Shown here: in pieces, positions 33,138 to 61,007 of the stretch | Layout: every line of letters starts with the position of its first letter | Position numbering within the stretch: the stretch's first letter is position 1 | Source of the DNA: a candidate division WWE3 bacterium RAAC2_WWE3_1 | Lineage (GTDB): Bacteria; Patescibacteriota; WWE3; UBA101185; UBA10185 | DNA: 64,000 nt | Direction of reading: 5' to 3' | NCBI GenBank assembly: GCA_000503835.1 | Contig: CP006914.1 | Location: 45,790 to 109,789 of the forward strand | Notes under the pieces: generated by a model | The model's database searches: none | Told to the model about the DNA's origin: nothing | Seen by the model: the letters and a program-made list of their open reading frames with translations, nothing else | Position numbers and translations under genes: made by a program

Positions 33138-34259
33138 ATGAAAATAGTTATCGTAATACCTACTTATAACGAAGCAGACAATATCGGAAGGCTTGTTGAT
33201 ATTCTTCAGCAGGAGTTTCTTAAAAGGCCCGGGCATGATTTTCACACTCTCGTCGTCGAGGGAAATTCTCCCGACGGTACGGCAAATGTAGTGCGTGATA
33301 AAATGAAGACCCATGAAAACGTCCACTTGTTAATGGAGAAAGAAAAAGCAGGTTTGGGAGCCGCCTACGTTTACGGATTCAAGGAAGCGATGTATGAGAT
33401 GAAAGCTGATGTGATTGTCGAAATGGACGCTGATTTTCAGCACGATCCCAAAGACGTCGTCAGACTCGTAGACGAAATAGATAAAGGTTACGACTACGTT
33501 ATAGGTTCAAGGTTTGCAAAAGGCGGGAGTATCCCTGAAGAGTGGGCGTTCAAGCGTAAATTTTTTAGTGTGGGCGGCAACATTTTCTCAAAGATCGTTC
33601 TGGGCATTTTTAACGTAAATGATTTCACGTCAGGTTTTAAAGCATCCAGGGTCAAAGGATTTGTAGACCGTTTGCCGTTGGACACAATTCTGTCCCGGGG
33701 ATTTGCATATAAGATTGACCTTTTATTTAAGATGCACAGACTTGGGGCGAAAATAAAAGAGGTTCCCATAAAGTTCGGTCTGCGTGACCGCGGCAATTCC
33801 AAAATGGAGAATAACAATATGACAGACTCTCTGAGAGTTGTTGTGACCCTTAGATATAACGAAAATAAAAATTTCGTAAAATTTCTTGCGGTGGGAGGAA
33901 TAGGGTTTATAGTTGACGCCGGTCTTTTCAATATATTAAGGATTGGTACCCTGAGTTCCCGTAACTCCGCGCTGGCCTCCGGCTTTACTGCCATGATGGT
34001 GACATTTATTTTAAATAACTACTGGTCGTTCGGAGAAAGGAAGATTGACGGAACGAAAAAGAAAGTGGTGGGATTTATCGTTTATATTATTTTTTCCTCT
34101 ATACCCATAGCAGTACGTTCAAGACTTGTAGGATTTTCCGTTAGTATGTTCGGGGATACAGCTCTTGTTTCAAATACAGCTTTCCTAATTGGTATAATAC
34201 TTGGGTTGATATGGAATTTTACAGTTTATAGTAAAATAATTTGGAAGGGCAAAAAATGA
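33138..34259 (+). CDS. GT2 polyprenol-phosphate glycosyltransferase (DPM1/GtrB-like) fused to a C-terminal GtrA-like membrane domain
   Basis: IVIPTYNEADNI...VEGNSPDGT...MDADFQHDP (GT2 DxD), and the C-terminal FVKFLAVGGIGFIVDAGLFNIL (GtrA). Confidence 0.8.
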   Translation: MKIVIVIPTYNEADNIGRLVDILQQEFLKRPGHDFHTLVVEGNSPDGTANVVRDKMKTHENVHLLMEKEKAGLGAAYVYGFKEAMYEMKADVIVEMDADFQHDPKDVVRLVDEIDKGYDYVIGSRFAKGGSIPEEWAFKRKFFSVGGNIFSKIVLGIFNVNDFTSGFKASRVKGFVDRLPLDTILSRGFAYKIDLLFKMHRLGAKIKEVPIKFGLRDRGNSKMENNNMTDSLRVVVTLRYNENKNFVKFLAVGGIGFIVDAGLFNILRIGTLSSRNSALASGFTAMMVTFILNNYWSFGERKIDGTKKKVVGFIVYIIFSSIPIAVRSRLVGFSVSMFGDTALVSNTAFLIGIILGLIWNFTVYSKIIWKGKK

Positions 34260-35014
34260 ATTACTCAATAGTTATACCCGCATATAACGAGGCGGACAAA
34301 ATATCTTCCTCATTAACACAAGCTGTGAATTTTATGAAAATTTTTACGGACACTTTTGAAATTATTGTGGTCGATGATGGAAGCAAGGATGCCACGGCGG
34401 CTATAGTGGAGGAATACTCGGTAGAAAATCCTGAGGTTAGGGTGATAAGAAATTCCCATAAAGGAAAAGGTTTCGCAGTGTTGACCGGAATGAACGCCGC
34501 AGTAGGAGATCTTATATATATGGCAGACGCCGATCTTTCAGCTCCCATGTCAGAATTAAAAAAACTTGCAATTTGGGTTATCGATCAGAACTTTGACATT
34601 GCTATCGCTTCAAGGGAAGGGATAGGCGCCGAGAGAGTCGGCGAACCTTTTTATAGACACATGATGGGAAGAGTATTTAATCTCATGATACAAATTATTG
34701 CACTGCCCGGAATACGGGATAGCCAATGCGGATTCAAACTTTTCAGGGGTTCGGTTGCGAAAGATATTTTCAAAAGAATGAGGATTTACGGCAAAAACAT
34801 GAAAGAGTTGGACAAACCGTATACAGGGGCTTGGGATGTTGAGGTTTTGTACTTAGCCAAGAAGTTAGGGTATAATGTCAAACAGGTTCCGATCGTATGG
34901 ACGCACGTTAAAACCACACGGGTTAGCGCGGTGCGCGATTCCGTTAAAATGGCGTTCGACGTTCTGAAGATAAGGCTGAACGATCTTATGGGCCTTTACA
35001 ATACTGCCAAGTAA
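34256..35014 (+). CDS. GT2 glycosyltransferase (dolichyl/polyprenyl-phosphate beta-glucosyltransferase-like)
   Basis: MNYSIVIPAYNEADKI...VVDDGSKDAT...MADADLSAP; ATGA overlap with the upstream gene. Confidence 0.78.
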   Translation: MNYSIVIPAYNEADKISSSLTQAVNFMKIFTDTFEIIVVDDGSKDATAAIVEEYSVENPEVRVIRNSHKGKGFAVLTGMNAAVGDLIYMADADLSAPMSELKKLAIWVIDQNFDIAIASREGIGAERVGEPFYRHMMGRVFNLMIQIIALPGIRDSQCGFKLFRGSVAKDIFKRMRIYGKNMKELDKPYTGAWDVEVLYLAKKLGYNVKQVPIVWTHVKTTRVSAVRDSVKMAFDVLKIRLNDLMGLYNTAK

Positions 35015-35068
35015 GCACCTCATAAAAGTCATTAAGTATATATTTCGGGGTGTAAATTTTATAAAACT

Positions 35069-36454
35069 ATGAAACTATGCGTAATAGGGACAGGTTATGT
35101 AGGTTTGGTAGGTGCCGCTATTTTTTCCGACTGGGGTAACGATGTGGTCGGTGTCGACATAGATACCGAAAAGATAGAAAGAATAAAAAAAGGCGAAATG
35201 CCTATTTATGAACCCGGGCTTTCGGAAATTGTTTTAAGAAATATTTCACAGAACAGACTCACGTTCACAACCTCGATTGCCGACGGAATAAAGGACGCCG
35301 AAGTTGTTTTTATATGCGTGGGAACCCCTCAAAGCGACACAGGAGCCGCAGATTTATCGGCGGTGTGGGAAGTCGCCAAAGATATCGGAAGGAACATGAA
35401 CGGCTACAAAGTTATCGTTACAAAAAGTACGGTACCGGTGGGAACTAACGAAAAAATAAAAATGATCATCAGAGAAAATCTTCCCGGTCCGCAGATCGAG
35501 TTTGATGTGGCGTCAAATCCCGAGTTTTTGAGAGAAGGTTCATCGGTTGAAGATATGGCCGCTCCGGACAGAACTGTTGTGGGCGCCGAATCCGAAAAAG
35601 CGCACTCGGTAATGAGAAGACTTTATGAGCACCTGAACACCCCTATCGTAGAATGCGATCTTAGATCGGCTGAGATGATTAAATATGCCTCGAACGGATT
35701 TTTGGCTGCTAAAATCTCATTCATAAATGAGATAGCCCAGATCTGCGAAAGAGCGGGAGCTGACGTTACCGTTGTAGCAAGAGGCATGGGTCTGGATAAA
35801 AGAGTCGGTGCAGCTTTTTTGAACGCAGGTATCGGCTATGGAGGAAGCTGTTTTCCTAAGGATGTTGCGGCTTTGTACAAAACTTCGACCGATCAGGACT
35901 ACGACTTCAAGCTTTTGAGAAGTGTTATGGAAGTCAACATAGCCCAAAGAGAGAACTTCATGAACAAGGTCCTCAGACATTTCGGTAAGAATCTTTCGGG
36001 AAGAACCTTCGCCATACTCGGTTTGGCTTTTAAGGGAAACACTGACGATATAAGAGACTCAGTTTCAATCGAGCTGTGCAAAAAATTAAGAGGACTGGGT
36101 GCCAAACTTAGAGTTTACGATCCCGAAGCAATGTACAACGCCAAGCAGGCGTTGGGTGCCGTAAATGTAGACTACTGTCTGGATAAATACGAGACCGTGC
36201 AGGGTGCTGACGCTTTATTCGTGCTCACCGAGTGGAAAGAATTTGCTACAATCGAGCTCGATAAGGTTAAAACCTTGTTAAAATCACCTGTAATATTTGA
36301 CGGAAGAAATCTATTGGATCGTGCAAAGGTTGAGGGAATGGGCTTCACCTATTTTGCCGTTGGTAAAAGAACTAACGGTATGGTTAAAATAGATACAAGG
36401 AATCTGTACCAGACAGTATTACTTAACACCAATGGTTCAACCGGGCAGCACTAA
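35069..36454 (+). CDS. ugd: UDP-glucose 6-dehydrogenase family (nucleotide-sugar dehydrogenase)
   Basis: MKLCVIGTGYVGLVGA (Rossmann), ...GGSCFPKD (catalytic Cys), 461 aa. Confidence 0.85.
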   Translation: MKLCVIGTGYVGLVGAAIFSDWGNDVVGVDIDTEKIERIKKGEMPIYEPGLSEIVLRNISQNRLTFTTSIADGIKDAEVVFICVGTPQSDTGAADLSAVWEVAKDIGRNMNGYKVIVTKSTVPVGTNEKIKMIIRENLPGPQIEFDVASNPEFLREGSSVEDMAAPDRTVVGAESEKAHSVMRRLYEHLNTPIVECDLRSAEMIKYASNGFLAAKISFINEIAQICERAGADVTVVARGMGLDKRVGAAFLNAGIGYGGSCFPKDVAALYKTSTDQDYDFKLLRSVMEVNIAQRENFMNKVLRHFGKNLSGRTFAILGLAFKGNTDDIRDSVSIELCKKLRGLGAKLRVYDPEAMYNAKQALGAVNVDYCLDKYETVQGADALFVLTEWKEFATIELDKVKTLLKSPVIFDGRNLLDRAKVEGMGFTYFAVGKRTNGMVKIDTRNLYQTVLLNTNGSTGQH

Positions 36455-37649
36455 AAAGAAAGTCGTAATCTTCGTACCGGAATTTCCGGTGCTGACGGAG
36501 ACTTTCATTGAACGTGAGCTCGCTAAAATAGCCGAAAGAGGAAATCTGGATGTTTCCATCTTATCTCTACGAAAAGGTTCCGGTGAAGTAAGCCCGGTGT
36601 TAGAGCCCCTCATAAGATATAAAAGACTTTCTGTTCCGAACGCCATTCTGTCCTTTAGATTTTTTTTCATAGCAGGTAAAAATATTTCCCGGGCTTTGGG
36701 TATTTTGAGTTCGTGCGGTATGCCCGCGGTTCATCGTTATTACACTTTGTTAAAAGGCATGGGTTACGCTCAGATTTTTTCTTCCTCCAAACCCGATCTT
36801 ATACTTGCTCACTTTATGTCGGAGTCCAGCACTATTGCAATGGTGGCGGCGGTAGTGCTCGGCGTCCCTTACGCGGTGTCTGCTCATGCAAAGGATGTGA
36901 CTGTCAGGCCTCATTGTATGAAAGCAAAGATTGAAAATGCGGCTTTTGTTTTGATATGCAATAAACACGCTTACGAAAGTTGTGTTAGGTCAACTGACCG
37001 GGATCACGCCCTCAAAATTTTATTAAGATATCATGGCCTTGATATTTCCGGGTTTCCGAGAGCAGGAAGTAAAAGCGGTGTTCCGGTAATACTAAATATC
37101 GGACGTCTCGAAGAGAAAAAAGGGCAAAAGTACCTATTGGAAGCGGCAAAAATCCTCCGTGACGAGGGTATAAAGTTTAAATTGATCATCGTCGGTCCCG
37201 GAAGTTTGTACGGGAAACTTAACGAACTGACCGGAGCTTTAGGACTCTCGGATGAGGTTGAGATCTTAGGAGGAGGCACGGGTCTGCCCTTTTCGGAAAC
37301 ACAAAAATATTATTCCCGCAGTGACGTTTTTGTATTTCCGGGTATTAACACGGATGAAGGAGACGCCGACGGTATTGCGAATGTTTTGCTCGAAGCTGCC
37401 GCTTCGCACTTACCTATTGTGGCTACAGACTCGGGAAGCACAAAAGAGTTTCTGGAAAATGATGTCAGCGGGGTCATTGTTCCGCAAAAAAACCCGGCGG
37501 CTTTAGCTGACGGCCTGAAACGTATTTTAAACGACAAAGAACTAGCAGACAGACTTGCGGAGGAAGCATATCGAAAAGTATCTTCGGAATTTGATATCGA
37601 AAACAATGCCGCAGAATTGGAAAATCTTATCATAAAGGAGTCTCTCTAA
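36432..37649 (+). CDS. GT4-family glycosyltransferase
   Basis: C-terminal GT-B block: EAAASHLPIVATDSGSTKEFLENDVSGVIV. Confidence 0.75.
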   Translation: MVQPGSTKKKVVIFVPEFPVLTETFIERELAKIAERGNLDVSILSLRKGSGEVSPVLEPLIRYKRLSVPNAILSFRFFFIAGKNISRALGILSSCGMPAVHRYYTLLKGMGYAQIFSSSKPDLILAHFMSESSTIAMVAAVVLGVPYAVSAHAKDVTVRPHCMKAKIENAAFVLICNKHAYESCVRSTDRDHALKILLRYHGLDISGFPRAGSKSGVPVILNIGRLEEKKGQKYLLEAAKILRDEGIKFKLIIVGPGSLYGKLNELTGALGLSDEVEILGGGTGLPFSETQKYYSRSDVFVFPGINTDEGDADGIANVLLEAAASHLPIVATDSGSTKEFLENDVSGVIVPQKNPAALADGLKRILNDKELADRLAEEAYRKVSSEFDIENNAAELENLIIKESL

Positions 37650-38840
37650 ATGAACATTGCCGTATTTATAAAATCCACAACCTTTAGCGGTTCTTATGGA
37701 GGATTGGAAACTCAGAACAAACTTTTATGCGAAGGACTGGTTTCACGCGGCCACAAACTTACTATATTTACTCCCCGGTTTGCACGAGAAAAAGAACAGG
37801 CAATTGAGAACGGAGTTAAGTATATTTTTGTCGAATGCAAGACTGCTCAGTACAGCTCGCTGACTGTCTCAAAAAAGGACAGTTGGGCGGAAAAGTCATG
37901 TGAAGTATTCCGCATGACACACAGCGGGGAAAAATTCGAATTAATAATCGGACAGAGTTCCGGCGCGGCGGGTGTAATTAAAAATAAGGAAGAGTTCGGT
38001 TTACCCATAGTTTCCATTTCTCACGGAACTAAGATGGGAGAATTTCAGACAAAGATTAAAAGTGATTCGTCGGTCAGGGGTTTGATGAAATCTTTTCTTG
38101 ATCTGCCTCACGTTTTGAAGAATTTCTTCACGGTACAAAGAGAATTCGTGCACGGTTCCAACATTGTGGTAGCCGTGTCAAACTCAGTAAAAAAAGCTTT
38201 GGTAGACGAAACTTTTGTTGAAGAAACTAAAGTTAGAGTAATTAACAACGGCATCAAGCCCCTAAATGTGGAGACGGTTGATGGTGGCAGAAACATAGGT
38301 AAATTCCGTTTGCTCTACGTCGGTCAGTTGATCCGCTCAAAAGGCATCGGAAAATTGGCAAAGTTGTTGCTGGCTGACAATATGAAGGATTTTACTTTGG
38401 ATATTGTCGGTTCCGGAGAATTGCAGGAAGAACTGGGGGAAATATCCGGAAAAAGCGAAGGAAGGATTAATTTGAGGGGAAAGCTTGATTATGCCGAAGT
38501 CCTGCGTATGTATAATCCGGCAAGGTTTGACGCTTTTGTCTTTCCTACGTCAAGAATAGAGGGTTTTCCCATGGTTCTGGTCGAGGCCATGTTCGGCCGG
38601 CTTCCTGTGGTGGCCTTCAACCTGGGCGGAGTTTCGGATGCGGTTACCGACGGGGAAACCGGGTACCTTGTAGATCCGGGTAAATTCGACGTTTTTAAGA
38701 ATAAGCTTGTAGAACTGAAGAACGATCCGGAGTCAGCACGAAAGATGGGTGTTAATGCTTTAAATAAGGCAACGGAGAGATTTACGCTTGATAAAATGTT
38801 AGACTCTTATGAGGAAATATTTAAGGAACTAAAAGCATGA
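37650..38840 (+). CDS. GT4-family glycosyltransferase
   Basis: EGFPMVLVEAMFGRLPVVAFNLGGVSDAVTDGETGYLV. Confidence 0.78.
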   Translation: MNIAVFIKSTTFSGSYGGLETQNKLLCEGLVSRGHKLTIFTPRFAREKEQAIENGVKYIFVECKTAQYSSLTVSKKDSWAEKSCEVFRMTHSGEKFELIIGQSSGAAGVIKNKEEFGLPIVSISHGTKMGEFQTKIKSDSSVRGLMKSFLDLPHVLKNFFTVQREFVHGSNIVVAVSNSVKKALVDETFVEETKVRVINNGIKPLNVETVDGGRNIGKFRLLYVGQLIRSKGIGKLAKLLLADNMKDFTLDIVGSGELQEELGEISGKSEGRINLRGKLDYAEVLRMYNPARFDAFVFPTSRIEGFPMVLVEAMFGRLPVVAFNLGGVSDAVTDGETGYLVDPGKFDVFKNKLVELKNDPESARKMGVNALNKATERFTLDKMLDSYEEIFKELKA

Positions 38841-40030
38841 ACATTTTAAGAATAGTTTATGACTGGCCAAATCCTTGGCAAGGGCTGGCTCCCCATCCTT
38901 ACGAAATTACGGCGGCACAGTTGAAACAGGGGCATAAAGTTACTTTGTTCTGCGGGCAGTGGCCAAATTCGGGCGGCCCTGTTAAGATCGACGGGCTTGA
39001 GATTAATGCGATAGACCGTGAGCCTTATCCCGACACAATTTTTTTTACCAGCAGTGTAGTTCTATTTTTTCGTTATTTAAAATACAGAAAAAAGAACAAA
39101 CCTGATGTAATCCACTGTCACGGGCATTTTGCGGTATGGATTTACGCTTACAGGACGTTTTTGAAAGAACATTTTCCCTGGGCTAAAGAACTTAAGATAC
39201 CTTTGGTTGTTCACTTTCACAATACCGCAAAAGGCAGATGGGTTACTTTTGAAAAAGAAGGAAAGTCTATAAAACCCATGTCGAAAATGTTGGGTTGGCC
39301 GATGGCCGTGTTTTCGGATAGGATGGCAGTGAAAGCCGCCTCCGCGTGTGTTTTTGTGAGCGAAGATAATAAAAAGGAAGCTCAGGAATATTACGGAGCG
39401 AACCCGAACAAATGTTTTTTGATCGAAACCGGTGTGAACACCGAGTTGTTCGTGCCTGTCGGTGACGAGGAAAAAGGAAAATCCCGCAGGGAGATAGGTT
39501 TAGACAGGTTCGACAAAGTTATTCTCAACCACGGTGTGCTGAACGAGAGAAAAAATATTCACCTATTGATCGACGCCCTGGCGTTACTCCCCGATGATTA
39601 CAAACTTATGCTTTCAGGTTCAGGCGATCCGGCTTACGTAGAAAAGCTCAATGAGCAGATGAAACTTAAAAAAGTTGAACACAGGGTGATAAGAACGGGC
39701 TATACTCCTTATCCCCATGTTCCGATAGCCTATCAGGTGTCAGATATATTTGTGCTGCCCTCTTCGTGGGAAGGACTGCCAAAGGCAGTTATGCAGGGGT
39801 TGTCCTGCGGGATTCCCTGTCTGGTCTCCGGTTTTAAAATAAATGAAGATATCAGGGGAGTTTTTTATCTTGAAAATATGGAACCTCAGACCATAGCCGA
39901 CAGAATTGTGGAAATAACAAGTGTGCCGAAAGATGTTGATGTTCAGCTTATAAGATCGAAATATTCATGGAATAAGAAAATTGAGGCTATAGATGAAATA
40001 TATGACTTTGCAACCAAAAATTATATTTAA
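38837..40030 (+). CDS. GT4-family glycosyltransferase
   Basis: ...VLPSSWEGLPKAVMQGLSCGIPCLVS... Confidence 0.72.
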   Translation: MNILRIVYDWPNPWQGLAPHPYEITAAQLKQGHKVTLFCGQWPNSGGPVKIDGLEINAIDREPYPDTIFFTSSVVLFFRYLKYRKKNKPDVIHCHGHFAVWIYAYRTFLKEHFPWAKELKIPLVVHFHNTAKGRWVTFEKEGKSIKPMSKMLGWPMAVFSDRMAVKAASACVFVSEDNKKEAQEYYGANPNKCFLIETGVNTELFVPVGDEEKGKSRREIGLDRFDKVILNHGVLNERKNIHLLIDALALLPDDYKLMLSGSGDPAYVEKLNEQMKLKKVEHRVIRTGYTPYPHVPIAYQVSDIFVLPSSWEGLPKAVMQGLSCGIPCLVSGFKINEDIRGVFYLENMEPQTIADRIVEITSVPKDVDVQLIRSKYSWNKKIEAIDEIYDFATKNYI

Positions 40031-41522
40031 GTATCTACCCTACGTTCTGTTCATTCTCGTGCATTTTTTTCTTTTAAATGTGAACACGGCGGAGTGGGGA
40101 GACTCATATAGAATACTCAGAGCTTCGGAATTTATAAGGGACGGGAGTTACCCTGAGGACGAAAAAAGACCACCTTTGTATTCTCTTGTGTTAGCCGCGA
40201 GACCCGCGGCAGCAGACCCCGTACTTTGGGCCAGGGGATTTATGTTACTGGCAGGTTTGGCCGGAATGTTTTTATTCGGGAAGTTTTTAAAGCAATACAT
40301 CAGGAACGAACGCTTCGTTTTTATCGGCATGTTATTTTTGTTGCTCAATCCTGATTTCTTATACTGGTCGATCCGGGTTATGGCGGATGTTCCGTTCGCA
40401 CTTTTAGCCCTTCTTGGAATTTACTTGTATAGAAAATGGAAGGATAATTGGACTTTTAAACGTTATTTCTTACTCGGTATTGTGGCCGGGCTTTCTATTT
40501 TAACCAGATTCGAAGGTTACATACTCGCGGCATCACTGTTCCTGTCTTTATTTATAGAACATAGGAAAAAGATCAAATATTATGTTTATTACGGGTTAGG
40601 TATTTTGCTTGTTGTTTTACCTTGGTTTTTGTACAGAAGTCCGTTTGCGTCTGAATACCTGGAAGAACCGGCAGGCCGCACTTATGACTGGACGATGATC
40701 TGGATTTACTTTGCCAGCCTATTAGCACTGTACGGGTTTGTTCCGGCATTTGCCCTACTCTCTGACCGCAAAAAGGATATATTCAGACTCTTTAAAAAGG
40801 AGCCTCACATTTCATTTTTCTTATTTTTCGAGCTCTTGTTAATACTTTTGTGGCCGGCGGCTATTCCGAGACTTTTTGTTGCGGTCGTGCCTATTTTAAT
40901 TCTTGTACTTACCCTGGTTTTGGAGAAATGGTGGGAGGACGGGAGGGAAAGCAAGAGTGTTTACGTAACGGCGGTGTCCTTACTATTATTTTATGTAGGT
41001 TCTCAGTTTTTTCTTAAATTGCAGTTTTTAATTTTAAATAAGGTACTTTTCACGACTCTGTTGATACTGCAGGTCGCTGCACTTTTATTTATCGTGAAAA
41101 AGAAATTCCGGCCGGCCGCAGTTTTGCTGGTTCTCACAATGTTATTTTGGTCGGTGTTTGTTATAAGACTGCACAAAGATATTTTTATTTCCGTAAAGAA
41201 CGCCGCCGAATACACCGTACGTAATCTTGAAGGCAAGGTTGCCTATAACGATGTCAGCAGTGTGTCCGACTTTTATCTGAATGTTTTGGATACTCCTAAG
41301 ATTTCCGGTTTTTATTACAACACGGAAAGTAAAAAGAATTTAACCTACGAGGCTTTACATCAGACGGGCGCCGATTATTTTTTAATTACAAACGAGCACA
41401 ACACTACCATGGAGCTGGATCTTGACTCCAGACCGTACTTAACTCCCGTGAAAGATTTTAGTTATAATGTAAACGGAGCCGAATTTTTTGCTAAAATTGT
41501 AAAGTTTGAGCGGAAGGACTAA
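39993..41522 (+). CDS. GT-C membrane glycosyltransferase, ArnT/PMT (GT39/GT83)-like
   Basis: 509-aa polytopic protein; the N-terminal loop EDEKRPPLYSLV resembles the ArnT/PMT catalytic loop. Confidence 0.6.
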   Translation: MKYMTLQPKIIFKYLPYVLFILVHFFLLNVNTAEWGDSYRILRASEFIRDGSYPEDEKRPPLYSLVLAARPAAADPVLWARGFMLLAGLAGMFLFGKFLKQYIRNERFVFIGMLFLLLNPDFLYWSIRVMADVPFALLALLGIYLYRKWKDNWTFKRYFLLGIVAGLSILTRFEGYILAASLFLSLFIEHRKKIKYYVYYGLGILLVVLPWFLYRSPFASEYLEEPAGRTYDWTMIWIYFASLLALYGFVPAFALLSDRKKDIFRLFKKEPHISFFLFFELLLILLWPAAIPRLFVAVVPILILVLTLVLEKWWEDGRESKSVYVTAVSLLLFYVGSQFFLKLQFLILNKVLFTTLLILQVAALLFIVKKKFRPAAVLLVLTMLFWSVFVIRLHKDIFISVKNAAEYTVRNLEGKVAYNDVSSVSDFYLNVLDTPKISGFYYNTESKKNLTYEALHQTGADYFLITNEHNTTMELDLDSRPYLTPVKDFSYNVNGAEFFAKIVKFERKD

Positions 41523-41524
41523 AT

Positions 41525-42211
41525 ATGAAGTTATCTATTGTTGTTCCCGTGTACAACGAAAAAAACACGATAGAGAAAATTTTAGGGGAGATAAAGGCCG
41601 TCGAAGGTCTGGATAGAGAAATAATAGTGGTGGACGACGCCTCAACGGACGGTACCACTGATATCTTAAAAAGGCTTGAAAAAGAACATCCCGATGTCCG
41701 TTTCTTTTACAAAGAGAAAAACAGAGGCAAGGGGCACACACTGAAGGTGGGGTTTGAACACACCACGGGCGATTACGTTATTGTTCAGGACGCCGATCTC
41801 GAGTACGATCCCAATGACTACCACAAGCTCATCCGCGCTTTAGACGAGCACCATGCCCAGGTTATATATGGAAGTAGATTTTCTGGAAGCTACGAGGATA
41901 TGTCCACGCTACATTACATTGGTAATAAAGTGCTCACCATAATCACGAACCTTTTTTTCGGAGTAATGCTGACCGACATGGAAACCTGTTACAAATTAAT
42001 GCCGGGAGAATTTGTAAGAAAAGTGAACATCAAATCAGATAGGTTCGATTTCGAACCGGAGATAACTGCCAAGATTCTAAAGTCAGGTTTGAAGATAAGA
42101 GAGGTTCCTATTTCTTACAGAGGCCGCACTCACAGCGAAGGTAAAAAAATAACGTGGCGCGACGGCATTCACGCCCTACTCACCCTGATAAAATACAGGT
42201 TTTTAGACTAA
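41525..42211 (+). CDS. GT2 polyprenol-phosphate mannosyl/glucosyl-transferase (DPM1-like)
   Basis: MKLSIVVPVYNE...VVDDASTDGT...VQDADLEYDP. Confidence 0.8.
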   Translation: MKLSIVVPVYNEKNTIEKILGEIKAVEGLDREIIVVDDASTDGTTDILKRLEKEHPDVRFFYKEKNRGKGHTLKVGFEHTTGDYVIVQDADLEYDPNDYHKLIRALDEHHAQVIYGSRFSGSYEDMSTLHYIGNKVLTIITNLFFGVMLTDMETCYKLMPGEFVRKVNIKSDRFDFEPEITAKILKSGLKIREVPISYRGRTHSEGKKITWRDGIHALLTLIKYRFLD

Positions 42212-42213
42212 TT

Positions 42214-44322: not shown

Positions 44323-44326
44323 GAAT

Positions 44327-45796: not shown

Positions 45797-45797
45797 T

Positions 45798-47372
45798 ATG
45801 AAATTATGGAGCAGATCGCCGGATCTTATTAAAAACAAGTATATTGCTATCATTTTCTTCATTGTAGTTTTTTCCTTAACACGTTTTCTTTTTCTCGGAT
45901 CCGATGAGATAAATCCTGACGGAGTTAACTGGCATTATAGGTCGCAGCAATTTATTGTCGGTTTAAAATCGGGAGATTTTGAGCGAACTTACCAGCATTA
46001 CCACCCGGGCGTTACCTTAATGTGGATTACCGGAGTGCCGATTGAGCTCTACAAACAAATCACCGGCATCACCGCGTACGATCAGTTTAATTTTTCGGCA
46101 TTTAACACGGTTGCCAAAGTTTCTGTGGTCCTGGTCCAGCTAATTCTGACTTTTATCCTTTTATATCATCTTTCTAAGATTGTGGGGTTCAAAACCGCTT
46201 ATTTTTCGGTATTTCTATTCTCATTAGAACCTTTTTTTATGGGCAATTCCCGTTTGTACCACATGGACGTACTGCTGACCCTTTTTGTGTTTGTTGCCCT
46301 GCTTATAAGCTGGGTGAATTTGAAGGATTTTAGCTATAAAAAATCATTTCTGGCGGGCATATTTCTTTCGCTTTCGTTCCTGACCAAGAGTATCGGAATA
46401 GGTGCCTTATTCTTTGTTTTGCTCTTTTCCACCGCCTATTTCGCGAATAAAAAGGACATGAAAGGGCTGTTGAAGTATTTTTCCACAATTCTCGGGGCTT
46501 TTGTCTTAACAACTTTTATCCTCTTTCCGGCATTATGGGTGAGACCGGCATTTTATTTATCCGAAATATTTGCCGAGTCAGAAAGGGTCGGAATTAGAAA
46601 AGGACACGAGCAAATAATATTAGGAGAGACAACTCAGGACGCAGGAATTTTATTTTATCCGCTGGTAGTATTTATGAAAACAACACCTTTTTTATTGATA
46701 GGATTAGTTCTGTGTTTTGTTAAATGTTTCAGGTCCTATACAGCGCCCGCAAAAAACATCAGCTCGAAATATTCCAACCCTTATCTTTATCTCGGGTTGT
46801 TTTATCTCGGATATTTTTTCGTAATGATCTACCCGTCGAAGAAACTGGACAGGTATATGCTCCCTCTTTACCCTTTCTTAGCGTTAGCGGCTTCGTACGG
46901 AATTATAAGATCCTATTCCTTAATAAAAACGGCAAAGATGAAAAAGATATTTATGAGCGGGGTGGTATTTTTGTTCACGCTTTTTTATATTGTTCCGGCA
47001 ATCTCTTATTTTCCTTATTATTTCACGTATACAAGCCCTTTGTTCGGTTCACCCGTTTCGGCCAACAGAGTAATCGCTCAAAAACCTTTCGGTATAGCAG
47101 TTCCTGCTCTCAGGGATTACATAATCGACAGGTACGGCGGCGAGCCGGAGCTTGGTTTTATCGATACAAAACCCATGAAATCCATTTATTCAAATTCAAA
47201 AGTTGCGGATATCAGGGTAAACGGAACAAGTGATTATGAACTGTTAATTTTAGGAATAAACGAGGAAATGCCTGAAAAGGTTTTAAAGAGCGGCACAAGA
47301 TTCAGAAAAGATTCTTCGCTGTACGTTAACGGTCTGGAGTACTGGAGAATATATGTCAAAGAAGACAAGTAG
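45798..47372 (+). CDS. GT-C membrane glycosyltransferase, ArnT/PMT-like (paralog A)
   Basis: Polytopic; YHPGVTLMWI, LEPFFMGNSRLYHMD, KKLDRYMLPLYPF motifs are shared with the 48864 gene. Confidence 0.65.
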   Translation: MKLWSRSPDLIKNKYIAIIFFIVVFSLTRFLFLGSDEINPDGVNWHYRSQQFIVGLKSGDFERTYQHYHPGVTLMWITGVPIELYKQITGITAYDQFNFSAFNTVAKVSVVLVQLILTFILLYHLSKIVGFKTAYFSVFLFSLEPFFMGNSRLYHMDVLLTLFVFVALLISWVNLKDFSYKKSFLAGIFLSLSFLTKSIGIGALFFVLLFSTAYFANKKDMKGLLKYFSTILGAFVLTTFILFPALWVRPAFYLSEIFAESERVGIRKGHEQIILGETTQDAGILFYPLVVFMKTTPFLLIGLVLCFVKCFRSYTAPAKNISSKYSNPYLYLGLFYLGYFFVMIYPSKKLDRYMLPLYPFLALAASYGIIRSYSLIKTAKMKKIFMSGVVFLFTLFYIVPAISYFPYYFTYTSPLFGSPVSANRVIAQKPFGIAVPALRDYIIDRYGGEPELGFIDTKPMKSIYSNSKVADIRVNGTSDYELLILGINEEMPEKVLKSGTRFRKDSSLYVNGLEYWRIYVKEDK

Positions 47373-48867
47373 TCTTTTATACTTGATAATATTTCTTGCC
47401 CTGGTTTTGAGACTGGCAGGAATAAGTCACGGGTTCCCGTTTATTTTTCATCCCGACGAACCGACCATAGTTCAATCGGCTCTCGGAGTGAGGTTCGATC
47501 CGAATCCTGGTCATTTCGACTGGCCCCATTTTTTTATATACGCTAATTATTTTGTTTTTAACATCTTTGCCAAAATCCGTGACCTCGCTGTAGATTACAA
47601 CATTCAGAACTTCATGATAAAAATATTTCCATTAATGTGGGACGACACCGTCGTATTTTATTTTATTACGCGCGTTTTTGTGGCAGTGCTCGGGGGGCTC
47701 ACTGTTATTCCCGTATATAAAACAGGAAAAGTTCTTTTCGGCGAGAAAGTGGGTTTACTGTCGGCTCTGGCTTTTGCCGTGATACCTTTTCATGTCCGGC
47801 ACTCTCATTACTCCCTGCCGGATACGCCCATGTTGTTCTTCTTATCCTGGGGGATTTACTTTGCAGCCCGAATTCTATCTCAGGGATACCCTATAGACTA
47901 CGTCTTTTCGGGTTTGTTTATAGGAATAGCCGCCTCAACCAAGTATAACGGGGGTCTGGGAGCCCTTACGGTGCCTTTGGCGGCGTTTTTACGCCGGGTG
48001 CTGGTGAAAATGCGTCTCTCGGAAAATTTATCAGAAACAAGGGGGGATTTTCCCTATTTTAAGACCGTTCTGAACCTTATTTTGTCCGGAATTTTTGCTT
48101 TTTTGGGGTTTGTCCTAGGAACTCCTTACTCGGTACTGGATTACAAGACTTTTAGCAGGACAGACTCGCCGCTGGGGGCCTTTTGGCAGTTCACAAATGT
48201 CGGTTCCGTGGATTTTGCGGAGCACGTTAGTAAATTTTTCACTGATATTAGTTTTAAGATCTCAGATGATATGGGGTACACAATTTTGGTCTCTCTCTTT
48301 TTAACTTTAGGTGTAGTGTTAATAAGATTTTTGAAAGGTACGTTTTCAAGATTCGATGTATCGTTAATGTTTTTAATTGTTTCGGCGTTAGTTTTCATTT
48401 ACTACATCTCAGGTTTTGAAAAAAGCCGTTCGCAATATTATTTCATTATTTATCCTTTTGTATCCGTAGTTTTCGGTTATTTTTGTGTGTGGGTAGTGAA
48501 TAAGATAAGTTTGGGAATGAAGCCTCTTTATTTTCCAGTCATACTCCTGCTATTTTTAGCGCCTTTTTACCTTTCGGTTGATACCGCTGTGAGATTTTTG
48601 AGAAATGACACCCGTCTTGACCTGAAAAAATTCTTAGAGACGGAAGTACCGTTTGGCACGAGGGTAGTTTACGGAAGTTCGGACGCCGCGGCGGTATCGA
48701 AATACGTTTTTAACAACGCAGTAAAAGATCCCGGTAAGTTACCTAAAGGAACGCGGTATTATTACATAGAATTAAACAAGGGCGTCTCTTCAGGCCGTGC
48801 TATTTTCGAGGTGTCCAATAAGGGCAGAATAGGGCCGTATATCACTGTCGAGGAGATGATTAGATGA
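47353..48867 (+). CDS. GT-C membrane glycosyltransferase, ArnT/PMT-like
   Basis: MSKKTSSLLYLIIFLALVLRLAGISHGFPFIFHPDEP: ArnT-type N-terminus with a DE-containing first loop. Confidence 0.65.
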   Translation: MSKKTSSLLYLIIFLALVLRLAGISHGFPFIFHPDEPTIVQSALGVRFDPNPGHFDWPHFFIYANYFVFNIFAKIRDLAVDYNIQNFMIKIFPLMWDDTVVFYFITRVFVAVLGGLTVIPVYKTGKVLFGEKVGLLSALAFAVIPFHVRHSHYSLPDTPMLFFLSWGIYFAARILSQGYPIDYVFSGLFIGIAASTKYNGGLGALTVPLAAFLRRVLVKMRLSENLSETRGDFPYFKTVLNLILSGIFAFLGFVLGTPYSVLDYKTFSRTDSPLGAFWQFTNVGSVDFAEHVSKFFTDISFKISDDMGYTILVSLFLTLGVVLIRFLKGTFSRFDVSLMFLIVSALVFIYYISGFEKSRSQYYFIIYPFVSVVFGYFCVWVVNKISLGMKPLYFPVILLLFLAPFYLSVDTAVRFLRNDTRLDLKKFLETEVPFGTRVVYGSSDAAAVSKYVFNNAVKDPGKLPKGTRYYYIELNKGVSSGRAIFEVSNKGRIGPYITVEEMIR

Positions 48868-50480
48868 TGCTTAAATTGCTCAAAAATTACAAAATAGAAA
48901 TAATTTTCGTCTTACTTTTTATATTGTCCAGGTTTCCTGACCTTGGGTACGACGTCTTCAATACCGACGTGTGGAAATGGAAAGCCAGGAGCTACGATTT
49001 CGGAACCGGTGTTTTTACATGGGATTTGGAAAAGACAATTCAGAAATATCACCCGGGTGTCACTTTGATGTGGCTCGGAACCGCGGCAATCAAGGTTTAC
49101 AATTTTTATTCCGGATACTATCCGGTGGAAAATAATACCCAAATGATCTTTCAACTGCACTTTGTACAGAAACTTTTTGTTACGACGGCAGTAGCTGTAA
49201 CTTTGGCGTTCGGTCTTTTTGTATTAAAAAAGTTATTCGGGGCAAGAAAAGCCTTGCTCGTTGTTGCATTACTTAGTTTAGAACCTTTTTACATTGCACT
49301 GACACGCGTTTTTCATTTGGAGGGATTAATGTCGACTTTCATGTTTGCATCGTTTCTCTGGCTTTATTATTACACCCTCGATGTAACCAAGAAAAAAAGG
49401 TTATTACTTTCGGCGGTATTTGCCGGTTTGGCGTTCTTGACCAAGACATCGGCGTTATTTATGTTCCCTTATGCGGGGTTAATTCTGTTGCTGGAGGGTT
49501 GGAAGAGATCAAAGAATTTTGCGGGGGCCGTACGCGATGCTCTGCCGAAGATAGGGCAGTGGATTTTGGTATTCGCGGTCGTATTTGTGGCAGTTTGGCC
49601 AGCTATGTGGGCTTTTCCGAGCCAGGCTCTAAGTGCATTGTATAGAGGGGTTTCGGAGATAGGGATTGAGAGGGAGCACGTGCAATTCTATTTCGGCAGT
49701 CTCGTCGAAGATCCCGGCTTTTTTTACTATTTTGTAGTTTTGGGGCTAAGGTCCTCGTACCTGTTAATTTTAGGTTTAGCCGGTGTCGCGGTCTTTTGGA
49801 AAAAAATATTCAATGAAGGACAACGAAAGTTTTTGTTCTACATTTTGTTATTTGTAGGATTTTACTTTGCACAGTTGATTATCCCTACGAAAAAGCTGGA
49901 CCGCTACATTCTGCCGAATATTATGATGCTCTCTCTTGTCACTTCTTTGTTCTGGATTTGGGTTCTGGAAAAGATAAAAGGCAGAAGCTTTCTCAAATTC
50001 ATCCCGTTGGTAGCAGTGGCAATAATTCCGATGTTATATCTTCATCCTGATTATTTGTCGTATTACAACCCGATCTTCGGCGGCCTTAAAAAAGGAATAA
50101 ACGTTTTGGAACCTAAATGGATGATCGGGGGCAAAGAAATAATAGCTTTCTTTGAACAAAAAATGATCGAAGATGGGACACAGCCGGTATACAGCGATAC
50201 TTCGCCGGAGAGAATAATGAACGGTACGGGCACGCCAAATATACTAACCGTAGCTTTCCAGGAAAAATATTATACTCAGATACATCCTTTTTTCCGTAGA
50301 ATAGGGGGATTTGCGGTCATCGAGGATCTTACGCCTTTTGCGGTCAAGACAAAATATTTTGTCTACCCGGTCTGGAACGACGTTTCTGCGGAAGAAAAAA
50401 GATTCGGGCTCAGGTACATCGATAGTATTTATCTCCGGGGCGTGGAGGTGTACAGGGTCTACGAAAGAACTCCATTATGA
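48864..50480 (+). CDS. GT-C membrane glycosyltransferase, ArnT/PMT-like (paralog B of 45798)
   Basis: YHPGVTLMWLG, LEPFYIALTRVFHLEG, KKLDRYILPNIMM. Confidence 0.65.
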   Translation: MMLKLLKNYKIEIIFVLLFILSRFPDLGYDVFNTDVWKWKARSYDFGTGVFTWDLEKTIQKYHPGVTLMWLGTAAIKVYNFYSGYYPVENNTQMIFQLHFVQKLFVTTAVAVTLAFGLFVLKKLFGARKALLVVALLSLEPFYIALTRVFHLEGLMSTFMFASFLWLYYYTLDVTKKKRLLLSAVFAGLAFLTKTSALFMFPYAGLILLLEGWKRSKNFAGAVRDALPKIGQWILVFAVVFVAVWPAMWAFPSQALSALYRGVSEIGIEREHVQFYFGSLVEDPGFFYYFVVLGLRSSYLLILGLAGVAVFWKKIFNEGQRKFLFYILLFVGFYFAQLIIPTKKLDRYILPNIMMLSLVTSLFWIWVLEKIKGRSFLKFIPLVAVAIIPMLYLHPDYLSYYNPIFGGLKKGINVLEPKWMIGGKEIIAFFEQKMIEDGTQPVYSDTSPERIMNGTGTPNILTVAFQEKYYTQIHPFFRRIGGFAVIEDLTPFAVKTKYFVYPVWNDVSAEEKRFGLRYIDSIYLRGVEVYRVYERTPL

Positions 50481-51754
50481 TCGGAGCGCTAATACAAAAG
50501 GTAAAAAGCAATCAATATTTGATTGGGACGGTTTATATAGGTGCGGGCAGTATTTTCGCGGCAATTTTTTCTTACCTTCTCCAGTTCGTTTTCGGAAGAA
50601 TTCTTTCGGTCGCAGATTTCGGGTCATTTAACGCTTTAATCTCATTAACATATTTAGTCGGAGTTCCCGCGGGGGTGTTCGGTGTTTCACTCGTAAAATA
50701 TGTTTCGGAACTTTCATCAAAACAGGACACAAAAAAACTTACCGCTTTGTACTGGAAACTGCTAGTGCTGTCTCTGTTGCTCGGAGTGGGAATTTCACTA
50801 ATTATATTTTTGTTAAGATCCGGTATTTCGGAGCAGTTAAAGATCTACGATAACAATGCTATTACCGCTTACGCCATACTGATGGGATTATCGTTTGTGG
50901 GGGCCATACCATCTTCGTATCTACAAGGTCTTCTGAGGTATCGTGCCTTCGCATTTTTTAACGTTACCTCCAGCTTTTATCGTTTTGCCTTGTCGGCTTT
51001 AGCTGTTCTACTCGGATTTGAACTGACCGGAGCCTTCGGAGGAATGTTTGTAGCAGGTCTGTTGGCAATAATTACCGCATTTTTTATTTTGCGAAAAAAT
51101 CTCACCGTATTTGAAAACATAAGTTTAGTCGATGACTACAAAAAATTGGTCGCATTCAGTCTGCCGGTAATATTTGTTAATTTCGGACTAATGCTTTTAA
51201 ACAATATCGATCTCATCCTCGTCAAGAAATATTTTGAACCTGAGACAGCCGGTTATTACGCGGGCACCGTAACTTTGGGTAAAATTTTTCTGTTCGGGGC
51301 CGGTGCCGTATCGACAGTAATGTTCCCGACCATTTCCTCTTTGGCAGCCCGTGGGTTAAATTACAGCCGGGCGTTCTTTAAATTTTTATCACTGCAGTTG
51401 GTGTTGGTAGCGGGGGGATTAGTTATCTTCTTCGTTTTTCCCTCGTTCCTTACAAGACTGTTCTTCGGAGAAAGATTTATGAACTCGGTGGAATATCTGC
51501 CGATGTTCTCGCTTTTCATCGGTCTTTATATAGTTATAAATTTTCTCATTCTTTTCTTTTTGGCCGTCAGTAGAACATCGGTGTTCCTTCTTTTGCTACC
51601 CGGGCTTATAGTGCAGTACCTGCTCATAAATTCAAACCACATGACTTTGTACGATATAATCACCGCGGACATATATGCTGGTATAATCAGCCTAGTACTT
51701 CTTACCGCGTTCTTCGTTATAGGAAGCAATGGAAAAAGAACAAAAGAAATCTGA
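50477..51754 (+). CDS. Wzx-like polysaccharide/oligosaccharide flippase (MOP superfamily)
   Basis: 425 aa, 12-14 TM helices. Confidence 0.6.
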   Translation: MIGALIQKVKSNQYLIGTVYIGAGSIFAAIFSYLLQFVFGRILSVADFGSFNALISLTYLVGVPAGVFGVSLVKYVSELSSKQDTKKLTALYWKLLVLSLLLGVGISLIIFLLRSGISEQLKIYDNNAITAYAILMGLSFVGAIPSSYLQGLLRYRAFAFFNVTSSFYRFALSALAVLLGFELTGAFGGMFVAGLLAIITAFFILRKNLTVFENISLVDDYKKLVAFSLPVIFVNFGLMLLNNIDLILVKKYFEPETAGYYAGTVTLGKIFLFGAGAVSTVMFPTISSLAARGLNYSRAFFKFLSLQLVLVAGGLVIFFVFPSFLTRLFFGERFMNSVEYLPMFSLFIGLYIVINFLILFFLAVSRTSVFLLLLPGLIVQYLLINSNHMTLYDIITADIYAGIISLVLLTAFFVIGSNGKRTKEI

Positions 51755-52562
51755 AAAACTAGTTTCGATAATTGTTCCTGCGTACAAACAAGAAAAAACC
51801 ATTAAACAGGATCTTGAAAGTATTCTGAACACTCTGCTTCAGACCAGATGGGAGTTTGAGATTATAGTTGTTGTCGACGGATTTTTAGACAAAACATACG
51901 ATATTGCCAGGTCCTTAGAAAATAAAAAACTAAAGGTTTACGGTTATGAAACAAATAAAGGTAAAGGTTACGCGATAAGATACGGAATGGCACGGGCATC
52001 GGGTGATTACATTTCGTTCATCGACGCGGGAATGGACATAAATCCTAACGGAATATCAATGCTCCTGGAACACATGGAATGGTACGGAGCGGATATTATT
52101 GTCGGGAGTAAGAAACACCCTGTTTCGAAAGTTGATTATCCTCTTGTGAGAAAAATCTATAGCTGGGGTTATCACACTTTGGTGGGGTTGCTTTTCGGGC
52201 TTAAAGTAAAGGATACGCAGACGGGGTTGAAAGTATTTAAAAGAGAAGTGCTTATAAAAGTCCTCCCCCGTTTACTGATAAAAGAGTTTGCTTTTGATAT
52301 CGAGTTATTGTCGGTAGCAAGCCATCTGGGGTTTGTTAATATTTACGAAGCTCCGGTGCACCTCACTATGGATTTCTCCCGGTCTACCTTCTCCCCATTT
52401 TTTCTTCTGGATAAAAACATCAGGAATATGCTTGTGGATACTGCAGCAGTTTTTTACAGGCTTAAAATATTAAAATACTACGACGATTCCAGTAACAGAA
52501 AATGGGTGTATGACAAAGAACTTGACATGAGAATTAACACTGGAGAGTTGAGAAATGAATAG
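51729..52562 (+). CDS. GT2-family glycosyltransferase
   Basis: LVSIIVPAYKQEKTI...VVDGFLD...FIDAGMD. Confidence 0.72.
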   Translation: MEKEQKKSEKLVSIIVPAYKQEKTIKQDLESILNTLLQTRWEFEIIVVVDGFLDKTYDIARSLENKKLKVYGYETNKGKGYAIRYGMARASGDYISFIDAGMDINPNGISMLLEHMEWYGADIIVGSKKHPVSKVDYPLVRKIYSWGYHTLVGLLFGLKVKDTQTGLKVFKREVLIKVLPRLLIKEFAFDIELLSVASHLGFVNIYEAPVHLTMDFSRSTFSPFFLLDKNIRNMLVDTAAVFYRLKILKYYDDSSNRKWVYDKELDMRINTGELRNE

Positions 52563-53568
52563 GTTTAGCATAATTATTCCCGTAAGAAAGTTCAACGAGT
52601 TTTTGAAAGAGAACATTTCACACTTAAAGGAACTGACCTACAGGAATTTTGAGGTAATAATTGTTACCGATGAAAAAGAGAACTACGACTTTCAGGATTC
52701 GAGATTTATTTTAACTAACTCAGGTCCGATTGGTCCGGGTGAAAAAAGGAACCTGGGAGCGGCAAGAGCTACGGGGGACGTTTTGTCTTTTTTGGACGAC
52801 GATGCTTATCCGGAAAAAGACTGGTTGGATAGGGCGGCGGAAATCTTTGAAAATGAGGATGTTTTTGCACTGGGGGGCCCGGCCATAACTCCCAAAGATG
52901 CCAGGTTTTTGGAGAGAATGTCCGGAAGAGTGCTGGAATCGTGGATGGCCAGCGCGGGGACGGTTTATAGGCACAAACCGGGAAAAAATATGGAAATTGC
53001 TGACTACCCCACGGTAAATCTGTTCGTAAGAAAGGACTCTTTTGATAGGGCAGGGGGCTTCCCTGTGGAATTTTGGCCGGGTGAGGACACCAAACTTTGC
53101 CTCGAGCTTGTAAAATCGTACGGGAGAAAATTCGTCTACGATCCAAGACCCGTCGTTTACCACCACAGAAGAAACCTTTTCATTCCGCATCTAAAGCAAA
53201 TATCCAGGTACGGACGCCACAGGGGGCAGTTTGCGAGGATTTTTCCTGAAACCTCCAGGCTTCCTTCATATTTCGCTCCCTCAATGTTCGTGGCAGGATT
53301 GGTGTTAGGCCCGTTTATATCATTATTTATTCCACAATTACTTAAGTTTTATATTTTCGTTGTAGGCGTATATCTTATAATGCTGGTTTTAGAGAGCGTA
53401 AGAGTTTTTCTTAAAGACAAAGATCCGCGCAGTGTCTTTTATGTCGGTGCGGGAATATTTTTAACACACGTTGTATACGGAGTAAATTTCATAATTGGTA
53501 TTATGAAGAAACCTGAGTTAAAATTGAGGAGCGTCGATAAATCATCCGGAAATTATTTAGGAGGATAA
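52555..53568 (+). CDS. GT2-family glycosyltransferase with a C-terminal TM region
   Basis: FSIIIPVRKFNEF...FLDDDAYPE...; hydrophobic C-terminus. Confidence 0.72.
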   Translation: MNRFSIIIPVRKFNEFLKENISHLKELTYRNFEVIIVTDEKENYDFQDSRFILTNSGPIGPGEKRNLGAARATGDVLSFLDDDAYPEKDWLDRAAEIFENEDVFALGGPAITPKDARFLERMSGRVLESWMASAGTVYRHKPGKNMEIADYPTVNLFVRKDSFDRAGGFPVEFWPGEDTKLCLELVKSYGRKFVYDPRPVVYHHRRNLFIPHLKQISRYGRHRGQFARIFPETSRLPSYFAPSMFVAGLVLGPFISLFIPQLLKFYIFVVGVYLIMLVLESVRVFLKDKDPRSVFYVGAGIFLTHVVYGVNFIIGIMKKPELKLRSVDKSSGNYLGG

Positions 53569-55907: not shown

Positions 55908-55922
55908 TTTTTCTCCTTTCTC

Positions 55923-61006: not shown

Positions 61007-61007
61007 T

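Follow-up and report, generated by a model that had tools for sequence, protein, structure and literature searches.

What does a bacterium with a 0.88-Mb genome build with sixteen consecutive glycan-synthesis genes? This question is raised by a 64,000-nucleotide stretch of candidate division WWE3 bacterium RAAC2_WWE3_1 (contig CP006914.1, positions 45,790 to 109,789; hereafter the window), in which these genes occupy positions 33138-53568 (hereafter the block). Few bacteria of the candidate phyla radiation (CPR), or Patescibacteria, have been cultured, and what is known of their envelopes comes mainly from imaging. Kantor et al. (2013) found glycosyltransferases to be abundant, "particularly" in their WWE3 genome, which they reported to lack a complete identifiable peptidoglycan pathway, and proposed polysaccharides, glycoproteins or a glycosylated S-layer (PMC3812714). 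Our analysis suggests that the block is probably a WWE3 core operon that makes a glycoconjugate of the cell envelope, with a first stage in the cytoplasm and a second outside the membrane.

Layout of the glycan locus

An earlier note, made from the sequence alone, had described 33138-53568 as a dense lipid-linked glycosylation cluster. Pfam searches covered all open reading frames (ORFs) of 29.6-63.9 kb, flanking genes at 0.1-9.6 kb and the called genes of the 10 kb downstream of the window, and they bear out both its coordinates and its gene classes. The interval holds 16 ORFs, all on the + strand and overlapping or nearly abutting, and Pfam places every one of them in glycan synthesis above gathering thresholds (PMT_2, 26.1 bits; GT2 PF00535, 23.3 bits; Polysacc_synt families, 23-28 bits). 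Genes are named here by their start positions in the window:

33138-34259, +, archaeal-type polyprenol-phosphate sugar synthase, GT2 domain with four C-terminal membrane helices (Pfam GT2 and GtrA_DPMS_TM)
34256-35014 (ORF from 34241), +, soluble DPM1/ArnC-like GT2 (Pfam GT2, PDB matches)
35069-36454, +, UDP-glucose 6-dehydrogenase, Ugd/TuaD-like (three UDPG_MGDP_dh Pfam domains)
36432-37649, +, GT4 (Pfam Glycos_transf_1, Glyco_transf_4, as for the next two)
37650-38840, +, GT4
38837-40030, +, GT4
39993-41522, +, GT-C glycosyltransferase, PMT_2 type (PMT_2 32.2 bits, 1.6e-7)
41525-42211, +, soluble DPM1/AglJ-like GT2 (Pfam GT2, PDB matches)
42214-44322 (ORF from 42154), +, DUF2079 protein, predicted GT-C-fold membrane domain with extracytoplasmic beta-sandwich domains (DUF2079 Pfam 123.6 bits)
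44327-45796, +, MOP/Wzx-type flippase 1 (Pfam Polysacc_synt_3 and Polysacc_synt, ~1e-17)
45798-47372, +, GT-C glycosyltransferase, PMT_2 type, old paralog of 48864 (PMT_2 27.5 bits)
47353-48867, +, GT-C glycosyltransferase, PMT_2 type (PMT_2 53.0 bits, 5.8e-14)
48864-50480, +, GT-C glycosyltransferase, PMT_2 type (PMT_2 34.9 bits, 2.3e-8; PMT 2.6e-6)
50477-51754, +, MOP/Wzx-type flippase 2 (Pfam Polysacc_synt 2.7e-20)
51729-52562, +, DPM1-like GT2 with the motif variant DAG (Pfam GT2, PDB matches)
52555-53568, +, GT2 with three C-terminal membrane helices (Pfam GT2, Glyco_trans_2_3)

Intergenic gaps stay between -38 and +73 nt from 33138 to the end of a radical SAM gene at 55513, a span of 22.4 kb that amounts to ~2.5% of the genome. 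The glycan locus extends beyond 53568 as far as the end of the window and for 10 kb or more after it, giving an extended region of at least 40 kb (~4.6% of the genome). Investment of 2.5-4.6% of so small a genome suggests that the product is important for the cell. The "about ten" GT2/GT4 genes in a row of the earlier note come to eight inside the block, with three more at 58122-63850. Its guess of a reduced genome agrees with WWE3 contigs and genomes of 0.86-0.93 Mb, one of which is titled "complete_curated". The 47353 protein is identical to one encoded in WWE3 assembly GCA_003516475.1 (contig DPCM01000003.1), and the longest contig with this protein measures 878 kb.

GT-C glycosyltransferases

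We first consider the polytopic transferases, four of which had been called ArnT/PMT-like. PMT_2 scores exceed the cut-off in all four (39993, 45798, 47353 and 48864). As a single sequence, 47353 had no PDB match at E up to 1 and a profile was needed; the profile of its family matched yeast Pmt1 (6p25) at 1e-12. The AlphaFold model of 47353 (predicted local distance difference test, 89.4; predicted template modelling score, 0.91) was searched with Foldseek, and its 48 best PDB matches were all GT-C-fold proteins, among them AglB, STT3, ALG12, ArnT, Pmt4, PglB, DPY19, Aft, Emb and a GT-C-like subunit of the glycosylphosphatidylinositol transamidase. For hhalign comparisons of the GT-C proteins we used ortholog alignments, with 47353 and 35 homologs as the reference (alignment A1). 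Against it, 39993 reached 96.3% probability over 445 columns, 45798 94.7% and 48864 94.0%. These matches identify the four proteins as GT-C enzymes and not transporters. Among the scanned window ORFs there was no MIR or PMT_4TMC match at E up to 0.01, and no window protein carried Pfam STT3 above threshold. The NCBIfam archaeal STT3 model matched 47353 at residues 100-152 only (33 vs 450 bits), and the WWED of 39993 sits where the ortholog alignment has no conserved columns.

Every GT-C has an invariant Asp in the loop that follows its first membrane helix (56-68 orthologs; invariance was counted in orthologs below 85% identity). In 47353 the invariant pair D35-E36 directly follows that helix. 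The corresponding invariant residues are E34, W35, G36 and D37 together with E57-K58-R59 in 39993 (64 orthologs), D36 and N39-P40-D41 in 45798, and N33-T34-D35 in 48864. By the positive-inside rule, this acidic loop would lie on the outer side of the membrane. Judging by the fold and the adjacent synthase genes, the GT-Cs would use a lipid-phosphate-linked sugar donor.

These GT-C genes had been taken for paralogs, and recent ones they are not. BLAST similarity was confined to one pair, 45798 and 48864 (29% identity), and the rest are related at profile level. A recent duplication was rejected, each gene having its own orthologs across WWE3. By sequence comparison, the GT-Cs are old, distinct families and not recent copies.

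The fifth GT-C candidate, 42214, had been recognized as DUF2079-like, and the Pfam score confirms this. Structural matches of the DUF2079 protein include ArnT, and those of 47353 and the DUF2079 protein include ALG12, ALG9, ALG3, PimE, AftA/B/D and Emb. At profile level, the DUF2079 family gave only noise against PDB sequences and 6% hhalign probability against the 47353 profile. The DUF2079 family is thus assigned a GT-C fold from its predicted structure, and Pfam places it in the GT-C clan. The conserved loop Asp is present here as D44 (counted from the ATG start), which is invariant after the first membrane helix. The modelled beta-sandwich resembles the glycan-binding domain of Wzt and is a possible glycan-binding module, which suggests a polysaccharide acceptor. 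Genes 41525 (GT2), 42214 (DUF2079 GT-C) and 44327 (Wzx) are separated by 2 and 4 nt, and the trio reads as a canonical three-component module.

A further candidate lies outside the block:

7426-9024, -, TMTC-like GT-C candidate, ~10 membrane helices followed by C-terminal tetratricopeptide (TPR) repeats (Pfam TPR at residues 386-523)

The earlier note had counted this TPR-tailed membrane protein as part of the system. Its N-terminal part matches PMT_2 weakly (E 0.0048; 17.5 bits against the cut-off of 26.1), and PF13231 occurs in some of its homologs, which JGI names "protein O-mannosyl-transferase". As a single sequence it scored 0.9% against A1 in hhalign, and the comparison was positive only with a homolog alignment: the homolog profile (A6) reached 89.7% probability (E 1.8e-6, 358 columns) and set the invariant D49-D50 of 7426 on D35-E36 of 47353. 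These alignments make 7426 a probable sixth GT-C, with a TMTC-like PMT_2-plus-TPR architecture.

Synthase-like GT2 enzymes, dehydrogenase and flippases

A GT-A fold GT2 domain is present in 33138, the ORF from 34241, 41525 and 51729, with PF00535 scores of 89-125 bits. The top PDB match of all four was the dolichol-phosphate mannose synthase (DPMS) of Pyrococcus furiosus, 5mlz (33138, 6e-36; 34256, 3.8e-19; 41525, 8e-18; 51729, 2.9e-13), which raises the three DPM1-like enzymes of the earlier note to four by the addition of 51729. For 33138, 34256 and 41525, ArnC comes directly after 5mlz among the PDB matches (~1e-15 for 34256), and GtrB is present too. For 51729, GtrB and ArnC rank below chondroitin synthase and other GT2 enzymes. 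The match of 33138 is full length, residues 1-369 aligning with 23-372 of 5mlz and including all four membrane helices. What had been called a GtrA fusion is therefore the native membrane domain of an archaeal-type DPMS, and a fused flippase is ruled out.

The catalytic motifs are strongly conserved. In 33138 the motif is EMDADFQHDP, with D97, D99, Q101 and H102 invariant in 46 orthologs; 34256 has ADADLSAP, with D96 and D98 of the DAD invariant; and 41525 has an invariant QDADLEYDP. Across these three enzymes the Asp residues of the DAD are invariant in 46-65 orthologs. These motifs, and DPMS, ArnC and GtrB as the top solved relatives, fit the polyprenol-phosphate synthase type that had been proposed; 51729 departs in its motif. 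There the motif is FIDAGMDINP, in which DAG replaces DAD and G101 is invariant in 38 orthologs, which may give the enzyme a different activity.

The best NCBIfam matches were AglJ for 41525 (1.8e-33) and also for 33138, and ArnC for 34256 (1.1e-20), with PgfS and PpgS among the best matches of the GT2 set. None passed a curated equivalog cut-off for AglJ, ArnC, PgfS or PpgS, the best reaching 116 vs 325 bits (AglJ). The synthase-like enzymes are therefore relatives and not assignable orthologs, and their sugars cannot be named. Only 33138 has the four-helix DPMS membrane domain; 34256, 41525 and 51729 have zero hydrophobic segments and, by analogy with GacI/GacJ (PMC8035078), would need a membrane partner.

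Gene 35069 is the ugd that the earlier note had named. Besides its three Pfam domains, it scores 470 bits against the NCBIfam NDP-sugar dehydrogenase cut-off of 189.8, and TuaD matches at 2e-168. The three GT4 enzymes are only distantly alike and are presumed to be cytoplasmic users of nucleotide sugars. The membrane-anchored GT2 52555 has a DDD motif, and its NCBIfam matches (MftF-like 2e-25, AglG-like 6e-17) both fall below their cut-offs. The two Wzx flippases of the earlier note, 44327 and 50477, score 63-73 bits against Polysacc_synt cut-offs of 23-28 and have at least 10 and 12 hydrophobic segments, respectively.

Conservation across WWE3

To place the block in its lineage, we scanned species-representative genomes with a DUF2079 profile. 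This yielded 80 loci, almost all of them with a WWE3 or Patescibacteria label, whose gene order was read by tblastn with the window proteins. Most loci long enough to contain it have the same order on one strand: CAP-domain protein, DPMS, GT2, Ugd, three GT4, GT-C, GT2, DUF2079, Wzx, three GT-C, Wzx, GT2 and GT2. Colinearity holds in 45 of the 47 loci with full 10-kb flanks, and 31 of the 47 are complete for the first 13 genes. Median protein identity is lowest at 41% (39993 and the first GT4) and highest at 69% (Ugd), followed by 67% (41525) and 65% (51729). Gene content and order kept one-to-one at 40-70% identity argue for a core locus and not a variable antigen island. These comparisons indicate that the block is a vertically inherited WWE3 core locus.

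Most relatives have one more component. A gap of ~0.9-1 kb separates the first Wzx gene from the next GT-C gene in 55 of 66 relatives, and all ten loci in which this gap was scanned contain an MprF-type LPG_synthase_TM gene there (for example L009:13585-14469; E 1e-35 to 1e-46 in the eight loci scanned directly). The gene is absent from the window, where the junction is 45796/45798, from the 10 kb downstream and from the loci of seven of the closest relatives.

Two genomes have in-frame stop codons in their 39993 and 45798 orthologs (L059:7735-9285 and L069:14826-16385), which could be gene decay or assembly error; L069 is also without a 47353 ortholog. Three more distant loci, L082 (OZ246395.1, a 945-kb chromosome), L077 and L081, have DUF2079 proteins of 28-33% identity and the same types of gene in a partly altered order, with GT-C genes lying on either strand, so that the component set is not limited to the core WWE3 group.

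Genes upstream and downstream of the block

The following genes flank the block:

31883-32878, CAP/SCP-domain membrane protein with a C-terminal membrane anchor and a Ser/Thr/Glu/Pro-rich linker (residues ~200-290)
53569-53826, +, ferredoxin of 85 amino acids (Fer4_13 on the called gene)
53900-55513, +, B12-binding radical SAM enzyme (Radical_SAM and B12-binding Pfam; HpnJ-like 1e-44, below cut-off)
58122-59159, +, GT2 (Pfam, as for the next four)
59166-59846, +, methyltransferase
59843-61006, +, GT4
61008-62102, +, DegT aminotransferase
62096-63850, +, GNAT-GT4 fusion
63831 onward, +, start of a membrane protein of 1244 amino acids (continues beyond the window; L084:11736-17390)

Most WWE3 loci have the CAP/SCP-domain protein directly upstream of the block, and it is a possible acceptor or partner. 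The radical SAM gene also follows the last GT2 in the distant loci L085 and L086, one of which has the ferredoxin gene too; the enzyme may act on a sugar by methylation or rearrangement. For so small a genome, a cobalamin-dependent enzyme is notable. Beyond the window (L084) follow a polytopic protein of 525 amino acids, a methyltransferase, a PMT_2 protein (457 amino acids, L084:18454-19827) and more GT4 genes.

A two-stage model of glycoconjugate assembly

The gene set can be arranged into a pathway. Ugd, with the downstream aminotransferase, GNAT, methyltransferases and B12 radical SAM enzyme, would supply nucleotide sugars. A lipid-linked glycan would be assembled at the cytoplasmic side of the membrane by the three GT4 enzymes and by 52555, the membrane-anchored GT2, and three or four DPMS/ArnC-like GT2 enzymes would load single sugars onto polyprenol phosphate. 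The two MOP/Wzx transporters would then move the lipid-linked species outward, to which most relatives would add the MprF-type flippase-like protein. Outside, the five GT-Cs would pass polyprenol-phosphate sugars to the growing glycan or to surface proteins, and the TPR-bearing 7426 may act likewise. A UppP/BacA undecaprenyl-diphosphate phosphatase at 3093-3917 (E 7e-78) shows that the genome encodes recycling or synthesis of the polyprenol carrier.

Multi-component transmembrane glycosylation systems have been reviewed for Gram-positive bacteria, where soluble synthases with membrane partners (GacI/GacJ), a Wzx-type flippase (GacK) and a PMT_2-type GT-C (GacL) provide precedents (PMC8035078). 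As in CsbB/GtcA/YfhO, GtrA/B/V, GacI/J/K/L and ArnC/ArnT, the block combines a GT2 synthase, a flippase (GtrA- or Wzx-type in those systems) and a polytopic GT-C with an acidic external loop. Unlike these three-component systems, it has three to four synthases, two MOP flippases and five GT-Cs in one operon, interleaved with GT4 and GT2 genes. Three-component systems attach single sugars as side chains and usually have an accessory role, whereas the WWE3 block is conserved in the genomes recovered.

Other parallels exist for the inside-out logic. Mycobacterial phosphatidylinositol mannoside, lipomannan and lipoarabinomannan synthesis and the eukaryotic ALG pathway use cytoplasmic GT4 enzymes, then flipping, and then GT-Cs that act on polyprenol-phosphate sugars made by DPM1/Ppm1-like GT2 enzymes. 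The WWE3 block would follow this logic but differs in having no sequence-level orthology, no phosphatidylinositol or GlcNAc-1-P priming enzyme seen and no STT3-type transferase found, and its host is a CPR bacterium of ~0.9 Mb. The Haloferax Agl cluster for S-layer N-glycosylation comprises AglJ, AglG, AglM, AglP, AglR, AglS and AglB. Its counterparts here would be the AglJ-like 41525 and 33138, the AglM-like Ugd, the AglG-like 52555, Wzx-like transporters, methyltransferases and GT-Cs. These matches lie far below equivalog cut-offs, and no GT-C has Pfam STT3 above threshold (no systematic search for WWDYG or the AglB C-terminus was made).

Several points weigh against the two-stage model. MOP/Wzx transporters classically flip diphosphate-linked oligosaccharides, which require a priming enzyme; none was seen in the scanned region, and one may lie elsewhere. 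No enzyme of the block passes a curated equivalog cut-off, which makes the donor sugars and acceptors guesses. Predicted structures cover two of the six GT-C proteins. Promoter and terminator scans stayed at chance level and gave no sign of co-transcription.

A literature search found no description of the conserved block, its GT-C multiplicity or the DUF2079 fold, and nothing relevant on GT-Cs or mannosyltransferases of Patescibacteria. The mechanism would be of a known kind, and the multiplicity, deep conservation and DUF2079 assignment appear to be undescribed. The ~19 genes conserved across the WWE3 genomes recovered form a concrete gene set for surface study. They offer candidate markers or targets for how WWE3 cells build their surface and attach to hosts, and co-evolving synthase, flippase and GT-C partners for expression and in vitro work.

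Alternative functions of the locus

The alternative that survives best, which we regard as possible but unlikely, is that the main role is protein O-glycosylation (Ppm1/Pmt- or TMTC-like) of secreted or surface proteins, for example S-layer proteins, pilins or sortase substrates, with the GT-Cs acting on Ser/Thr as proteins leave the Sec channel. The GT-Cs resemble GT39 Pmt and TMTC enzymes in their PMT_2 and PMT matches, in the DE or DD motif that follows membrane helix 1, in the Pmt1 profile match and in the TPRs of 7426. Homologs of 47353 are named GT39 or ArnT family, and the O-mannosyl-transferase name of some 7426 homologs points the same way, PMT_2-plus-TPR being the architecture of the eukaryotic TMTC protein O-mannosyltransferases. 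The conserved upstream CAP-domain membrane protein, with its Ser/Thr/Glu/Pro-rich linker, would also fit, as would the sortases and possibly glycosylated S-layer reported for WWE3 (PMC3812714). SecY, SecA and signal peptidase I share the window, together with Adk. The proximity of SecY is, however, explained by the usual layout of the ribosomal protein operon, which the window appears to carry along with rpoB and rpoC, judging by ORF sizes and positions. Single-sugar transfer to proteins would not need three GT4 enzymes, GT2 enzymes other than DPMS and two MOP flippases, and five serial GT-Cs resemble, from what is known of lipomannan and ALG synthesis, a multi-step glycan extension. Unlike Pmt proteins, the GT-Cs of the window have no Pfam match to MIR or PMT_4TMC domains, the DUF2079 protein has a domain like a glycan-binding module, and the gene context is rich in oligosaccharide-building enzymes.

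Under the two-stage model, a glycan or lipoglycan acceptor is favoured by the serial GT-Cs, the GT4/GT2 set and the Wzt-like domain of the DUF2079 protein; proteins may be acceptors as well, and both may apply. In a stronger version of this model, which we consider improbable, the block and its downstream extension would make the chief wall or envelope polymer of WWE3. The pathway would then be essential, and a bacterial equivalent of inside-out assembly of the ALG or lipomannan type. DUF2079 would represent a GT-C family with a new function, recognizing the end of the glycan through its Wzt-like domain and acting in chain extension or termination. The locus would be more significant if a lineage in which peptidoglycan synthesis is reduced did use its product as the main polymer of the wall.

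Two Polysacc_synt transporters amid many GT2 and GT4 genes could also suggest a classical Wzx/Wzy locus for a capsule, exopolysaccharide or O-antigen-like variable antigen, in which the PMT_2 proteins would be polymerases or ligases. We think this very unlikely. Pfam searches of the scanned window ORFs and 10 kb downstream found no initiating phosphoglycosyl transferase, Wzy/O-antigen ligase, chain-length regulator or export protein, which argues against such a locus, though other parts of the genome could encode them. High turnover is typical of antigen loci, whereas this locus keeps its content and order across species, and its PMT_2 proteins have the GT-C fold and the acidic motif of loop 1.

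Equally remote is an Arn-like route (Ugd, aminotransferase, ArnC-like GT2, ArnT-like GT-C) that alters surface charge by adding an amino sugar to a membrane lipid or to a teichoic-acid-like polymer: Ugd, the DegT aminotransferase, the ArnC match of 34256 and ArnT among the structural matches of 47353 and the DUF2079 protein are in its favour, but no ArnA-type decarboxylase/formyltransferase or ArnD deformylase was found by Pfam in the scanned window ORFs, the CPR genomes of Kantor et al. are without lipid A synthesis (PMC3812714), and the route explains at most one of the five or six GT-Cs.

Other features of the downstream region

A ~2-kb stretch of small ORFs splits the glycan locus after the radical SAM gene. 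This region, 55599-58102, contains four or five small - strand ORFs (72-127 amino acids) and one + strand ORF (143 amino acids). The small ORFs had no Pfam, PHROGs or PADLOC match, and two of them share weak similarity. In L085 and L086, GT2/GT4 genes directly follow the radical SAM gene, and the stretch therefore looks like a clade-specific insertion.

The proteins of 1244 and 525 amino acids at the far end of the locus had no Pfam match and were negative in hhalign. The larger one has ~10 N-terminal membrane helices, an external domain of ~750 amino acids and a C-terminal anchor, and we suspect that the architecture of the two resembles that of large GT-C proteins such as AftD or YfhO.

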